Assembly: GCF_003334335.1 (NCBI RefSeq)
Contig: NZ_QOWQ01000002.1
DNA: 64,000 bases
Origin: Escherichia coli
Lineage (GTDB): Bacteria > Pseudomonadota > Gammaproteobacteria > Enterobacterales > Enterobacteriaceae
Direction: 5' to 3' (one strand)
In this document: piece after piece, positions 1,236 to 10,422 of the stretch
How the letters are laid out: every line of letters begins with the position of its first letter
How positions within the stretch are numbered: the first letter of the stretch is position 1
Program-made: the position numbers and the translations under genes
Notes under the pieces: generated by a model
Databases searched by the model: none
What the model saw: the letters and a program-made list of their open reading frames with translations, nothing else
Told to the model about the DNA's origin: nothing

Positions 1236-2587
1236 TCTTCTCTGACTGGCCGTGGCGTCACTGGCGGCAAGTGCGGGGAGAAACCATCGCCTTACGTCTT
1301 AATGACGAGCAACTCAACTGGCGCGAGCTTTGTGCTCGCGTCGATGAATTAGCCTCCGGATTTGCGGTGCAGGGGGTGGTTGAGGGCAGCGGCGTGATGT
1401 TGCGGGCGTGGAATACGCCGCAAACGCTGCTCGCCTGGCTGGCGTTACTGCAATGCGGGGCGCGGGTGTTGCCCGTGAACCCTCAGCTGCCGCAACCGTT
1501 GCTTGAAGAATTGCTGCCCAATCTGACGCTGCAATTTGCTCTGGTGCCGGATGGGGAAAACACGTTTCCGGCATTAACGTCGCTGCACATTCAGCTGGTT
1601 GAAGGCGCACATGCCGCTACGTGGCAGCCGACGCGTCTGTGCTCAATGACGTTGACCTCGGGTTCTACCGGTTTGCCGAAAGCCGCTGTCCATACTTATC
1701 AGGCCCATCTTGCCGGTGCGCAAGGTGTGTTATCGCTGATTCCGTTTGGCGATCACGATGATTGGTTGCTCTCTTTACCGCTGTTTCACGTCTCCGGTCA
1801 GGGAATTATGTGGCGCTGGTTATACGCTGGTGCGCGGATGACGGTACGTGATAAACAGCCATTGGAGCAAATGCTGGCAGGCTGTACTCACGCTTCACTG
1901 GTGCCAACACAACTCTGGCGTTTGCTGGTTAACCGTAGTTCCGTTTCCCTGAAAGCGGTGTTACTTGGCGGCGCGGCTATCCCGGTCGAGTTGACGGAAC
2001 AGGCGCGCGAGCAGGGGATTCGTTGCTTTTGCGGCTATGGTCTGACCGAGTTTGCCTCCACGGTGTGTGCGAAAGAAGCCGACGGCCTGGCAGACGTTGG
2101 TTCGCCGCTGCCGGGTCGGGAAGTGAAAATCGTTAATAATGAAGTGTGGCTGCGGGCTGCCAGTATGGCAGAAGGTTACTGGCGTAACGGGCAACTGGTT
2201 TCACTGGTTAATGACGAAGGCTGGTACGCTACGCGCGATCGCGGTGAGATGCATAATGGCAAGCTGACCATTGTCGGACGTTTAGACAATCTATTCTTCA
2301 GTGGCGGAGAGGGTATTCAGCCGGAAGAAGTCGAGCGCGTAATTGCTGCACATCCTGCGGTTTTGCAGGTGTTTATCGTCCCCGTTGCCGACAAGGAGTT
2401 TGGTCATCGACCGGTGGCGGTGATGGAGTATGACCACGAGAGCGTTGATCTTAGTGAATGGGTGAAAGATAAGCTGGCCCGTTTTCAACAACCGGTGCGC
2501 TGGCTAACTCTGCCGCCGGAGCTGAAAAACGGCGGTATTAAAATTTCACGTCAGGCGCTAAAAGAGTGGGTGCAACGTCAGCAATAA
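1232..2587 (+). CDS. menE: o-succinylbenzoate-CoA ligase
   Basis: 451-aa ORF, adenylate-forming enzyme motifs (TSGSTGLPK); ATGA overlap with menC. Confidence 0.93.
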
Positions 2588-2696
2588 TTAACCCTCCGTT
2601 TCACTTCTCATTTCTGCCATTCCATTGCCGTTGATAAAGAGTTTATCTGTTAATCTGTAAATTGATGTGAAAACTCTTAGCAAACAGGATAATGCA

Positions 2697-2963
2697 ATGG
2701 AATGGCTGGTCAAAAAATCGTGCTGCAATAAACAAGATAACAGACATGTACTTATGCTCTGCGATGCTGGCGGCGCGATAAAAATGATCGCCGAAGTGAA
2801 GAGTGACTTCGCCGTGAAAGTGGGGGATTTACTCTCGCCTTTGCAGAATGCGCTTTATTGTATTAATCGTGAAAAGCTGCATACGGTGAAAGTCCTCTCG
2901 GCAAGCAGTTATAGCCCCGATGAGTGGGAACGGCAGTGTAAAGTGGCAGGGAAAACTCAGTAA
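2697..2963 (+). CDS. pmrD: PmrD signal-transduction connector protein
   Basis: ORF 2667..2963 contains [26 protein letters not shown]..., recognised as PmrD (88 aa from the internal Met at 2697). Confidence 0.85.
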
Positions 2964-3343
2964 CGTTGTTTTGTCGTGGGCAGGAAAATCAGCATCAACC
3001 CGCTCATAATACAGGCTACTCCCAGTAGTGCTTTCAGCGAAAAAGTCCCTTCCCAGCCGGGAAGTACCATTGAAGCAATCCATACCAGCACATAACTCAT
3101 ACTGAGCAAGGCATAGGCTTTGCTTAGCGCAAGTTTATGAAGCGTTTTATACCAACAAAAAACGGAAAGCAGATAACCCAGCAGCCCGAGTAACAGTATC
3201 CGGGCATCCAGGCCAAAAGCTAACAGAGCCGCGATAAAATCCCATAAGTGCGTCATCGGCGGCAGATGACTCGCCGCAAAACCCAGGCTTAATTGCGCAA
3301 CTGAGGCAATAATGACGCTGAATAATCCCCACATCAGGCCCAT
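2957..3343 (-). CDS. arnF: Undecaprenyl-phosphate-aminoarabinose flippase subunit ArnF
   Basis: C-terminal 128 aa ([15 protein letters not shown]...) of the 222-aa six-frame ORF; the upstream part of that ORF is arnE read in another frame; 4 predicted TM helices. Confidence 0.85.
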
Positions 3344-3678
3344 TACACCGTACTCCCGAGGATCACAATGCCGCCAATAATGAACGCCACCCCACACCAG
3401 TGACGCGGCGATACCGGTTCGTGCCACAGTTTTACTGCAGCCAGCGTCACCCAGACAAAATTCAGACTTAACATCGGGTAAGCAATGCCTACCGGTACGT
3501 TCTGCAAGACCAGCAGCCAGAGCACCATGGCAAGACCAAGACAAGCCAGCGCCAGTCCCAGCCACAGCACGATATGTTTGCGCCGTTTGTTTATCGCCAC
3601 AAAGCAGGTTGCCTGTTTCTGACACAACTGCCCGGCAACGCTAAGCAAGCTGGCAAAGACTAATGTTAGCCAGATCAT
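3343..3678 (-). CDS. arnE: Undecaprenyl-phosphate-aminoarabinose flippase subunit ArnE
   Basis: 111-aa hydrophobic ORF, small-multidrug-resistance-like; stop overlaps arnF start, start overlaps arnT stop. Confidence 0.88.
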
Positions 3679-5327
3679 TTGGGACGATACTGAATCAGCA
3701 CCAGACGCTCCTGACGATCGATGGCATCTGCGGGCGGAATGGCGAGACTGTTGATATCTTCATCGCGGTCAACCGAAAGCACGAGAGTAATAATCCCCTC
3801 CTGACGATGTTGATTAAGCCAGTTTGCGAACTCATCACCGCTGACAAATCTCCCTTTCGCATCCGGATAATTAAGGCCGTATTTCAACTCACCTGTCTGG
3901 CGATACATGATGATGTCATCGCGTTGCAGGCTCCATGCCAGACCTGCGGCAACACCGACGCTATCAGTAAGAATATAGCGGCTTGGCTGAAGTGATTCTT
4001 GTGTCATCTCGACAAAAAATTGCGGATGTTTTCCTTCCATAACTCTGTCAGGAATTGAAAATCCTACCAGCAACGCCAGCCCCAGCGGGCAAAGCGCGGC
4101 AAAAGGCCAGGTCTTTTCGACGTTTGTTAAGGTGTACCAGCCGAAAAATGCCCATAGCGAAAAAATCGACCAGGCACAAAAGACTTTATAGCTCTCGAAG
4201 GTTTGCCACACCGGCGTGTTCATTGGTCCCCACGGGGAGACCACAAATGTGGCAATAATGCCAGTGACGCCAAAAGCGATGTTAATCCAGCCATTAATCC
4301 GCAGCGCCAGAGGATTATTTTTTGCTGCCAGCAAAGCGTAATGCGCCATCAGCATTGCCAGAGATGCAAAGCAGGAAAGAATATAGGTGGGCAATTTACC
4401 TTTAGCGACGGAGAAAAACAGCAGCGGCATTATCGTCCAGCTCAACAAATAGACGGTTGCGGAATGCTTGCGGTTTTTCCAGCCTGTGTACAGTGCACCG
4501 GGGAGTAATCCCAGCCACGGCAGGCTACCGGCAATGATGACCGGCACGTAGTACCAGAACGGAGCTCTATGTTGGGCATCATCCAGTGCAAAGCGTTGAA
4601 TATGCTCAACCCAGAAAAAATAGTGCCAGAAGTTAGGCTCCCGCTGCGCTATCGCCAGTCCCCAAGGGAGAACCGTCAGTACGCAACTGATAACCGCCAG
4701 CCAGCCGTAAATAAAGAGATCTTTCCAGCGTTTTTGCGTCGCTACCCATGGCAGCACGCTTAATACCGGCACGGCAAGGGCGAGAAAACCTTTGGTCATC
4801 ACCCCCATGCCGCAGGTGATTCCCAGCAGTAAAAATCCTGCGCTTTTGCCTTTCCACGTCTGTGCCTGCATTGCCAGCCAGAAGCTGCACATTCCCGCCA
4901 CCAGCCAGAATGCAATAAACGGATCGAGCACGGCATAAGTGCCGATGGCATAGACAATAAACAATGAGAGATAAATTACTGTGGCGAGTAGAGCCAGACG
5001 TTTATCGCGCCATAAGCGCAGAGTAAACCAGGTCACCAGCGCGGCAGTTAACAGGGTCGCAAAGATAACGCCTGCCCGCACACCAAAGTTATTCGCGCCA
5101 AATAGCCATTGCCCAATGCTGTTAATCCAGTATCCGGCAATGGTTTTTTCGAAATAACGTAGCCCTAACAGATGGGGCACAATCCAGTCGCCGGATGCCA
5201 GCATTTCTCGACTGATTTCCGCATAACGCGTTTCATCGGGTTGCCAGAGCAGACGCGTGCTGATCGGTAACAGGTAATAGCAGGCAATAAACGCGAAGAG
5301 GCCGATAAGGTAACGTACCGATTTCAT
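3675..5327 (-). CDS. arnT: Undecaprenyl phosphate-alpha-4-amino-4-deoxy-L-arabinose arabinosyl transferase
   Basis: 550-aa polytopic membrane protein ORF in the arn operon position. Confidence 0.93.
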
Positions 5328-6217
5328 CAGCGACTACCCGCAATTTGTTGGCAACCCAGCCAGCCTTCACGTCCGGCAATATTTCCGCGAACAACTTGTC
5401 CGAGCGGCAACGTCTCTGATAACAGTTCGCTTAAAGGGCAAAATGTCACGCCTTCCTGAGCTGCGCGTTTGAGGAGATCCACAAAATTATGCTGATAAGC
5501 GCAGCCTTCAACTTCTGCATGAATGGTATAAACCGGCGTGCCTTTATCTCGCAGGATGCGGTTGAGTAACCAACCGTTAAAATCTTCTGCTTTCACATCC
5601 CGACCAATCACTTCATCCCAGGTGGGTAAGGTCACCGGAATTTGCGCAGTGCCAGGGTTTCCTGATTCGAGCAATGGACGGAACGGCATGGCCCCACGAC
5701 AATCGCTGTTGTAGCGCAAATGGAACGCTTCTTTTGCTTCGATCACCTTCTGGTCGGCACGCCAGCCCGCAGCGGCAGAACAGGTTACCGGTTGACCGAT
5801 AATCTCTTCCAGAGTGCGAAGACCGCGTGCAATATCGTCGATCATTGTTTGCCGATCCCAGTTACCGCTACGGGCTTGCCAGGCATGGTGATCCCAGGCG
5901 TGCAGGCCGACTTCGTGATGTTTAGCCGCTTCACGAATGATATCGGCATTGGCATGACCAATCTCTTTACCTGGCCAGGCCGTACCTGCCAGTAAAATAT
6001 CCCAGCCATAAAGCGATGCCGCGTTTGAGCGCAGCATCTTCCACAAAAACTGTGGCTTCACCAGTCGCCAGAGATGGCGGCCCATATTGTCCGGGCCGAC
6101 GCTGAAAAAAATGCTGGCCTGAATATTATGCTTACTCAAGATTTCCAGCAGACGCGGCACGCCTTCACGGGTGCCACGAAAGGTATCGACATCAATGCGT
6201 AAGCCTACTTTGGTCAT
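5327..6217 (-). CDS. arnD: 4-deoxy-4-formamido-L-arabinose-phosphoundecaprenol deformylase
   Basis: 296-aa ORF, polysaccharide-deacetylase-like; operon position. Confidence 0.92.
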
Positions 6218-8195
6218 GATGGTTTATCCGTAAGATCAACGGTGCGCAGGAAGAAATCCAGCGTTTCGTCGATGGTTTCCTGCATATCAATTTTCGGCTC
6301 CCAGTCCAGGCAGCGGTGGGCATTGCGGATGCTCGGTTTACGATGCTCTACGTCCTGATATCCTTTGCCGTAGTAGCTGCTACTTTCGACAACGCGAAAG
6401 CCCGCAAACGGTGGGAAATGATGGCGCAGCGGATGTTTTTCGAAGCTCGCCAGCAGCATCTCGCCCAGTTCCTCAATGCTCGCTTCGTTCTCAGGATTGC
6501 CAATGTTGATAATTTCACCGTCGCAGCGATTTCCCGCATTTTCGATAATGCGGTATAACGCCTCGATACCATCGCGAATATCAGTAAAGCAGCGTTTTTG
6601 TTTTCCGCCATCAATCAGCTTAATCGGTGAACCTTCTACCAGATTGAGAATGAGTTGCGTAATAGCGCGGGAGCTGCCAATTCGCGCTGCATTAAGGTTA
6701 TCCAGTCGTGGTCCCATCCAGTTAAACGGGCGGAAGAGGGTGAACTGTAAACCCTCTTTTTCGCCATAGGCCCAGATCACCCGATCAAGTAATTGTTTTG
6801 ATACCGAATAAATCCAGCGTGGTTTATTCACCGGGCCGACGATTAAATTAGAATGGTCCTCATCGAAGTATTTATCGCTACACATCCCATAAACTTCTGA
6901 AGTTGACGGGAAGATGATTCGCTTACGGTACTTCACGCAGTAGCGGATAATGCGCAGATTCTCTTCAAAATCGAGTTCAAATACGCGCAGCGGGTTGCGG
7001 GTATATTCAATCGGCGTGGCTATCGCCACCAGCGGCAAGACGACATCACATTTTTTGACATGATACTCAATCCATTCGGAATGAATACTGATATCGCCTT
7101 CAACAAAGTGAAAATGCGGATGATTCAGAAAACGGCTTATCGCATCGCTGCCAATATCCAGACCGTAAACTTCATAATGATCTTCGCGCAGCAGGCGTTC
7201 TGTCAGATGGTTGCCAATAAAGCCATTCACCCCGAGGATGAGTACCCGGGTACGGCGTCGGGCGGTGCAGGCAGGCTGGCTATTCAAGCGTGAACCTTGC
7301 ACCAGGCCCAGCGTCTGCGCTAATTGCGAGCCCTGCATAGTAATGCCGTCGCCCGCCTGTCCGGTGACGATTTCCAGCGCGCCATCGCCACAGGCAATCA
7401 GCAGTGGCGCAACAGAAATCACGCTCCCCGGCTGTGCTTTGCTGGCATGAGGATGAACACGCGACGACCAGACGGTGAATTTCTGATTGCCAACATAGCT
7501 GAAGGCACCCGGCCACGGATCGGCAACGGCACGTACCATGTTGTGCAGTACGGATGCCGGTTTATGCCATTCAAGGAAACTGTCATCCGGCGTTCTGCGA
7601 CCAAAACAGGTGGCTTCGTTTTCGCGCTGGGCGATTTCCAGAATATTACCGTGTTTAATGGCGGGTAATGTCTGTTCCAGTAGCTGGCGCGCGGCATGGC
7701 ACAATTTATGATGCAGCGTAATAGCGATATCGTCTGGCGCAATGGCAATGCGCAGTTGCGCCACAATGGCCCCGGCATCGGCACGTTTCACCATTCGGTG
7801 CAATGTAACGCCAGTTTCCGTTTCACCGTTGACCAGCACCCAGTTCAGCGGCGCGCGACCACGATATTTTGGTAACAGCGAACCATGCAGATTAAATGCA
7901 CCTGCGGGAGCGAGCTGCAAAATTTCGTCGTAAATAAGATGGCGATAATAAAAAGAGAAAATCACATCTGGCGACAGTTGGGCAATGCGTTCCACCCACA
8001 GCGGATGATTAACGTTATCCGGCGCATAAACCGGAATGCCTCTTTCCGCCGCCAGACGAGCCACCGAACCATAAAAGGCTTTTTCACCGGGATTATCAGT
8101 ATGGGTAAAAATGGCGCTAATTTCGTAACCGGCAGCCAGCAGGGCTTCAATACCGAGGCATCCCATATCGTGGTAGGCAAAAACGACGGTTTTCA

Positions 8196-8196
<1 letters not shown>
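6214..8196 (-). CDS. arnA: Bifunctional UDP-Ara4N formyltransferase / UDP-glucuronate decarboxylase
   Basis: 660-aa ORF; N-terminal formyltransferase fold ([13 protein letters not shown]...) and C-terminal NAD-dependent decarboxylase domain. Confidence 0.95.
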
Positions 8197-9167
<971 letters not shown>

Positions 9168-10325
9168 TTATTGTCCTGCGAGTTGCTGAAGGGCTGTGAT
9201 GACATGGTCGGCATCGGCGGTAGTCATATCCGGGAACAGCGGCAAAGAACAGATGCGTTCGCTATTCCATTCGGTATTCGGTAACGACAGCGTGGGAAAA
9301 CGCTCGCGATAATATTTTTGTGTGTGAGCGGCGCGGAAATGTAACCCGGTACCAATGCCTCTTTCTTTTAACGCTTCCATCAACGCATCGCGACTGATAC
9401 CACAACGTTGTTCATCGACACGAATAATAAACAGATGCCAGGCGTGAACGTGCGGCCAGGCGGGAAGGCTTAATGGCTGAAAGGGGAGAGCTGCCAGTGC
9501 TTGCTGATATTGCTGGGCAATTTCGCGCCGACGGGTGTTGAGGTGCTCTAATTTGACTAACTGTGTCAGGGCAATCGCGGCGTTAATATCGGTCAGATTG
9601 TACTTATAGCCCGGTGTTAAGACTTCAGCCTGCGGTGCACGGCCCCAGGTTTGTCTGTCATAGGCATCGACACCCAGACCGTGAAATTTCAGCATCCGTA
9701 GCTGGCGGGCAAGGTTTTCATTATCAGTTACAATCAGGCCACCTTCAGCACAGGTAATATTTTTAATGGCATGAAATGAAAAAATAGCGGTACCTTTTGC
9801 GCCAATATGTCGCCCTTTGTAATACGTACCGACGGCATGGGCAGCATCTTCGATAACTGCGATGCCGTAACGTTCGCCAATGGCGCGAATGGCGTCAATA
9901 TCTGCTGGCGCACCGGCATAATGCACCGGAATGATGGCTTTAGTGCGTGGCGTAATGGCTGACTCGATAGCTTCAGGCGTGACCATCAGCGTATCGCGGT
10001 CGACATCCACCATTACCGGCGTTGCACCCAACAAGGAAATCATATTGAGGGTTGAAACCCAGGTCAGGGAAGGCGTAATCACTTCATCGCCCTTGCCAAT
10101 TTTCAACGCCATTAGCGTGATATGCATTCCGGCGGTGGCTGAACTGACCGCGATGGCATGCTGATTTCCCGTCAACTGGCAAAAAGCTTGCTCAAGCGCC
10201 TGATTCTTCGGACCGGTTGTGATCCAACCGGATTCGAGAACCTCTTTAACTGCAGCGAGTTCCTCCACGCCCATTGCTGGTCGCGAAAAAGGCAAAAATT
10301 CTGACATTGCTTTTCCTTCCGCCAT
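9168..10325 (-). CDS. arnB: UDP-4-amino-4-deoxy-L-arabinose--oxoglutarate aminotransferase
   Basis: DegT/PLP aminotransferase ORF; start set at [10 protein letters not shown] (385 aa); the six-frame ORF extends 5 codons further to 10340. Confidence 0.9.
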
Positions 10326-10405: not shown

Positions 10406-10422
10406 ATTAACTTAACCTTAAG
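10406..10422 (-). promoter_or_regulatory. Candidate PmrA (BasR) box upstream of arnB: CTTAAG-gttaa-GTTAAT on the arnB strand
   Basis: Direct repeat of YTTAAK-like hexamers with 5-bp spacer about 80 bp upstream of the arnB start; matches the known PmrA half-site pattern. Confidence 0.55.

Follow-up and report, generated by a model that had tools for sequence, protein, structure and literature searches.

The convergent pmrD and arnF genes of Escherichia coli overlap by seven nucleotides and most likely form an ordinary compact junction with mutual read-through

In the stretch of E. coli DNA analyzed here (64 kb, hereafter the window, to which all coordinates refer unless another record is named), the convergent genes pmrD and arnF lie so close together that each runs 7 nt into its partner, by C-terminal codons that are lineage-specific and not conserved. 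The reading that we favor, with a probability of roughly 0.78, is that of an ordinary compact tail-to-tail junction with mutual read-through and a modest regulatory role or none. RNA polymerase coming from either side must continue into the opposite gene, so that the two mRNAs have complementary 3' ends. The overlap as such is already known, being present in the standard annotation (RefSeq MG1655), and overlapping transcription of the two genes is also known from a published genome-wide map (PMC12288877).

The pmrD CDS (88 aa) occupies positions 2697-2963 of the plus strand, from the ATG at 2697 to the TAA at 2961-2963, and the arnF CDS (128 aa) occupies positions 2957-3343 of the minus strand, where the ATG appears as cat at 3341-3343 and the TGA as tca at 2957-2959. 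Both CDSs were assigned from the open reading frame, the NCBIfam profile and the RefSeq annotation, and pmrD also from a PDB structure. When the plus strand is read directly across the pmrD/arnF junction (2950-2966, ggaaaacTCAGTAAcgt), the shared stretch on both strands is TCAGTAA at 2957-2963. On the arnF side these 7 nt comprise the stop codon, the Tyr128 codon and one nt of the Arg127 codon; on the pmrD side they comprise one nt of the Thr87 codon, the Gln88 codon and the stop codon. The 7-nt 3' overlap claimed in an earlier sequence-only reading of this DNA (stop codons at 2961-2963 on the plus strand and 2957-2959 on the minus strand) is thus exact to the base. The RefSeq annotation of MG1655 carries the identical 7-nt overlap (pmrD 3198-3464 and arnF 3458-3844 in the coordinates of the MG1655 record, L001). 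Since the stop codons are set by the reading frame, the overlap is independent of start codon choice.

Long convergent overlaps in databases are often artefacts of 3' extension (PMC2478687), and one may ask whether one of the two CDSs is unreal or ends elsewhere, so that no true overlap exists. We regard this as extremely improbable. The overlap is just 7 nt long and is also found in K-12 and in all E. coli records among the matches listed, and both stop positions are set by frame. PmrD scored 175 bits against NCBIfam NF011994 (cut-off 96; match over residues 1-85 of 88) and ArnF scored 140 bits against NF002816 (cut-off 99; match over residues 4-122 of 128), both well above the curated family cut-offs, and the 88-aa PmrD of the window aligns along its full length (residues 1-88 of 88) with the E. 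coli PmrD chain whose structure has been solved (2JSO/4HN7). An annotation artefact was rejected on the basis of these family scores and the PDB chain match; what is found is a short convergent CDS overlap, in which two real genes on opposite strands have stop-proximal bases in common. The overlapped codons of pmrD and arnF lie outside both conserved family profiles, as judged from the ends of the NCBIfam matches, and the overlap stems from variable C-terminal extensions made of non-conserved residues.

Among the eight convergent CDS pairs of the 64-kb window, pmrD/arnF is the only overlapping pair and forms the tightest convergent junction; the other seven pairs are separated by gaps of 38, 40, 41, 53, 73, 127, and 199 nt. 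Short overlaps of this kind are nonetheless a well-recognized and ordinary class: convergent overlaps made up 7% (3,035) of 42,055 well-characterized overlaps in 338 prokaryotic genomes (PMC2478687). The pmrD/arnF junction is structurally like the short convergent CDS overlaps of prokaryotes generally, in which a few bases are common to two stop regions and which originate when a stop codon is lost or shifted and a non-conserved C-terminus is extended. What sets pmrD/arnF apart is only that a single regulatory circuit includes both partners.

A K-12-type menBCE/pmrD/arnFETDACB region makes up the first 10 kb of the window. A 1-kb query around the junction shows 100% identity to MG1655 and is present in 5420 of the 5426 complete E. 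coli genomes. arnF is the last gene of the arnBCADTEF operon, the upstream genes arnE, arnT, arnD, arnA, arnC, and arnB being annotated by RefSeq on the minus strand at 3343-10307. Neighboring genes of the arn operon share 1 or 4 nt at 3343, 3675-3678, 5327, 6214-6217, and 8196; such TAATG- or ATGA-type junctions, found here along the arn operon down to arnF, are typical of translational coupling. The start of the arn transcript is presumably located upstream of arnB. In the divergent arnB-ais intergenic region, about 7.4 kb from the junction, there is a PmrA-box-like direct repeat (CTTAAGGTTAAGTTAAT, 10406-10422, minus strand) with one mismatch to YTTAAK-N5-YTTAAK, the consensus of the PmrA site, and this predicted box upstream of arnB likely drives the transcription that would run into pmrD. 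The sequence-only reading had called the pmrD and arnF transcripts PmrA-circuit transcripts, and both genes do belong to the PhoP/PmrD/PmrA circuit, in agreement with this PmrA-box-like site and with a review describing PmrD as the connector from PhoPQ to PmrAB. That PmrA represses pmrD is stated in the title of a paper by Kato et al. (2003), which a review cites.

On the other side, the pmrD promoter lies in the 109-nt menE-pmrD intergenic region (2588-2696, plus strand), where a pattern scan found a weak PhoP-box-like site at 2629-2645 with three mismatches. The standard terminator scan found no terminator-like site on either strand of this spacer (2588-2696); men operon transcription may enter pmrD across it, and antisense RNA from arn read-through may extend as far as menE. 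E. coli O80:H26 strain EC-107 (NZ_CP043217.1, L024 517-1214) carries an IS1A insertion in the menE-pmrD spacer, about 60 nt before the pmrD start; the insertion probably disrupts the pmrD promoter region.

We compared the junction across relatives. A genome scan for PmrD loci gave 10 loci, all from Escherichia, Citrobacter, and Salmonella; for L007, L008, and L014 the spacing was taken from the alignment, the tblastn values being split-match artefacts or real rearrangements. Of the 5426 complete E. coli genomes, 5239 contained a 71-nt junction query, and all matches listed had annotation for both genes. The 7-nt overlap reads TCAGTAA or TCAGTAG in E. coli, E. albertii, and the cryptic Escherichia lineages. 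In Salmonella enterica the overlap is 6 nt long (TCATGA), with two stop codons back to back, and genomes of the Citrobacter amalonaticus group have no overlap, the genes being 3-9 nt apart. Escherichia, Salmonella, and Citrobacter all conserve the gene order menE-pmrD-arnF and lack intergenic space at the junction, while the overlap, its phase, and the tail residues vary. Because the exact overlap differs between genera, there is no indication that the 7 nt themselves are under selection, and conservation of the overlap as a sign of selection was rejected on the differences in phase and length. The arrangement as such may be under selection, given the tight abutment in three genera.

More distant PmrD-family genes (P0072, P0079, P0081, and P0084; about 80-93 aa; L018-L023) are not located beside arn genes. 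Their neighbors are an MFS transporter and a ferredoxin gene, a Wzz gene, or an EAL/GerE regulator gene. It follows from this location that PmrD function needs no such arrangement and that only the Escherichia/Salmonella/Citrobacter group has pmrD linked to arn. P0079 was considered as the Klebsiella PmrD and was ruled out by PDB comparison. PmrD is otherwise a small, single-domain protein; the PmrD profile matches P0103 (579 aa) in nine and P0109 (312 aa) in five separate stretches, and these two proteins appear to be built of tandem PmrD-like repeats.

Within E. coli, variants at the junction were also observed. Some strains carry a frameshift near the 3' end of pmrD that results in a 103-aa PmrD (P0016 and P0017), whose frame extends into arnF by about 50 nt more. 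Truncated PmrD forms of 49-69 aa are also numerous in the database and suggest frequent decay of pmrD. In strain SCPM-O-B-8794 (NZ_JAATUR010000019.1, L008 1501-3255) the whole arnBCADTEF operon is missing and pmrD is kept; about 70 nt of the arnF 3' end are left after pmrD, followed directly by ais and nudI, and the PmrD of this strain (90 aa) has an altered C-terminus (…KSANNVVLQ). This strain is a natural deletion in which pmrD stands without a convergent partner.

Next, both strands were searched for transcription terminators. A standard terminator scan found no hairpin with a U-tract at or just past the pmrD or arnF stop codon on either strand. A more liberal scan (hairpin of dG <= -7 with at least five U in the following 9 nt) found no such site on the plus strand between 2951 and 3400, and on the minus strand it found a single weak candidate inside pmrD, from 2814 to 2789 (dG -9.3, tail AUCAUUUUU). 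No Rfam match was obtained in 1500-4500 at E <= 1. The folds of the two transcript tails are not more stable than those of shuffled sequences (z-score -0.5 for 221 nt of the pmrD tail and -0.02 for 361 nt of the arn tail). The lack of room for a terminator asserted in the sequence-only reading therefore stands: there is no intergenic space and no U-tract hairpin at or after either stop codon. As neither strand has an intrinsic terminator at the junction or shortly beyond it, each transcript must enter the other gene.

Bidirectional intrinsic terminators, that is, G+C-rich hairpins flanked by an A-tract and a U-tract, occur in the same setting as pmrD/arnF, at the 3' ends of two convergent transcription units. 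According to the scans and folds this element is absent from the junction, and pmrD/arnF differs from such terminators in having neither intergenic DNA nor an A/U-flanked hairpin, whereas the gaps of 38-199 nt in the other seven convergent pairs of the window could house them. The Salmonella and Citrobacter loci have no shared terminator at the junction.

The transcripts may instead end at intrinsic terminators embedded in the opposite CDS, which would give a fixed antisense overlap of about 150-170 nt; the candidates are the minus-strand hairpin at 2814 to 2789 for the arn operon and a plus-strand hairpin at 3104-3128 for pmrD. The stability of the two hairpins (dG -9.3 with tail AUCAUUUUU on the minus strand, and dG -11.9 for the stem at 3104-3125 on the plus strand) speaks for such an arrangement, as does the finding that TransTermHP predicts overlapping terminators for 146 of the 165 E. 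coli convergent excludons in general (PMC12288877). However, the plus-strand hairpin lacks a U-tract (tail UUAGCGCAAG) and fails both scans, the U-run of the minus-strand hairpin is displaced by 4 nt and the hairpin was missed by the standard scan, and neither site was found in the Salmonella scan. Conservation of the hairpin sites is uninformative on function in any case, because both sites lie in protein-constrained sequence. An embedded intrinsic terminator on the minus strand is possible, though weakly supported, and termination of both transcripts at a fixed pair of embedded hairpins appears unlikely to us.

The untranslated tails that result from mutual read-through would extend over 2964-3120 on the plus strand for pmrD, antisense to the 3' half of arnF (C/G ratio of 1.5-1.8 in 78-nt windows), and over 2789-2956 on the minus strand for the arn transcript, antisense to pmrD (C/G ratio of 1.5-1.6 in the first 90 nt). 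Both tails are C-rich and G-poor (C/G of 1.5-1.8 over the first ~100-150 nt), an excess of C over G that is also usual for the antisense strand of coding DNA. This composition would be compatible with Rho loading and Rho-dependent termination but is no proof of either.

Published transcriptome data bear on the overlap of the two mRNAs. The ExcludonFinder study (NAR 2025, PMC12288877) lists arnF-pmrD among 165 convergent excludons of MG1655 and names it as an example of an excludon within one pathway. In that work the transcript bounds were derived from RNA-seq coverage in 58 MG1655 transcriptomes, and the listed pairs were detected in at least 50% of the samples. Because the arnF and pmrD CDSs already overlap, the listing is near-automatic once both genes are expressed; it therefore shows co-expression and not the extent of read-through. 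By the CDS overlap and by this RNA-seq listing (PMC12288877), the two adjacent genes do have overlapping transcripts. The claim in the sequence-only reading that the 3' ends are antisense to each other is borne out, in that an mRNA of either gene that extends through its stop codon is complementary to the opposite message for 7 nt or more. Likewise, full-length mRNAs that end short of the opposite gene are impossible, because each stop codon lies inside the other CDS. A further convergent overlapping pair from the PmrA/PmrB (BasRS) circuit, pmrR-basS, is on the same excludon list (PMC12288877, Table 1).

Apart from one internal site, no mapped 3' end of a pmrD or arnF transcript was found in the readable 3'-end data sets. 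The Term-seq supplements of Adams (2021) have no pmrD or arnF among the entries listed, and a paper on transcriptional interference (PMC10349824) has no pmrD/arnF entry. The TRS study (PMC10687069, Supplementary Data 3) has, among the entries listed, only an 'internal' sense-strand 3' end that corresponds to position 2712 of the window. This plus-strand end is located 16 nt into pmrD, right before an AAAAAA run, and could be due to premature termination, processing, the end of read-through from the men operon, or an artefact of the A-run.

The arnF-pmrD pair is itself a listed member of the convergent excludons, with overlapping transcription units. Its listing reflects coverage overlap, whereas the behavior that defines an excludon is mutually exclusive expression by interference or RNase III; the general mechanism given is transcriptional interference together with RNase III cleavage of the duplex (PMC12288877). 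The best-characterized E. coli precedent for regulation by complementary 3' ends is mscL-arfA (PMC10070815). As in pmrD-arnF, the two genes are convergent neighbors with complementary mRNA 3' ends, and genetic and biochemical experiments proved that the arfA transcript serves as antisense RNA to mscL, with involvement of RNase III (PMC10070815). The overlap of mscL-arfA lies in the 3' UTRs, in contrast to that of pmrD-arnF, which lies in the CDSs themselves.

The sequence-only reading had raised transcriptional interference between the two genes as no more than a potential. The main alternative is a functional excludon in which the arn operon exerts a transcription-coupled negative feedback on pmrD. 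Phosphorylated PmrA would turn on the 7.4-kb arn operon, polymerases would run past the arnF stop codon across the 267-nt pmrD gene and its promoter, and pmrD expression would be reduced by collision, promoter occlusion, and RNase III cleavage of the mRNA duplex, thus reinforcing the known repression of pmrD by PmrA. Several observations are in favor of such feedback: neither the standard nor the liberal scan found a terminator shielding pmrD; the abutment is kept in Escherichia, Salmonella, and Citrobacter; arnF-pmrD is on the excludon list (PMC12288877); and the mscL-arfA pair provides an E. coli precedent for 3'-overlap regulation via RNase III (PMC10070815). Moreover, pmrD is only 267 nt long, so that read-through from arnF would soon cover the whole gene and the promoter region at 2588-2696. 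These points have to be weighed against the varying phase and length of the overlap, which Citrobacter lacks altogether, the location of more distant pmrD genes elsewhere, so that the circuit needs no such arrangement, and the retention of pmrD in E. coli SCPM-O-B-8794, which has lost the whole arn operon. In addition, untranslated read-through would probably be halted early by Rho, and no experiment on interference between pmrD and arnF was found in the literature, including PMC12288877, which was the only paper found to link pmrD with 'transcriptional interference'. On balance we consider functional feedback of this kind rather unlikely. It is similarly doubtful that the tight abutment represents a selected second feedback loop, in which arn read-through would silence the connector that activated PmrA; such a loop, predicted from gene arrangement, may act through polymerase collision and antisense RNA/RNase III as a promoter-independent, transcription-coupled brake on PhoP-PmrD-PmrA signaling.

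In the compact-junction reading that we prefer, the ribosome would leave each mRNA at the stop codon, and each tail would then be an untranslated, C-rich antisense RNA. Transcription would most likely end at scattered sites, through Rho action in the first few hundred bases and/or through head-on collision of polymerases when the pmrD and arn units are both active. Any regulatory effect would be a by-product, and probably a modest one under most conditions. Its direction, if there is an effect, would likely be that strong PmrA-driven transcription of arn lowers the output of pmrD, an effect that would have the same sign as the known repression of pmrD by PmrA.

The PhoP-PmrD-PmrA circuit, a textbook example of signaling through a connector, controls polymyxin/colistin resistance. 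If arn read-through measurably damps pmrD, it would add an extra layer to the feedback and kinetics of this circuit, and such damping, if true, might help to explain the differences between E. coli and Salmonella. The pmrD-arnF pair is chiefly of value as a well-placed case in which to test whether bacterial 'excludons' matter.
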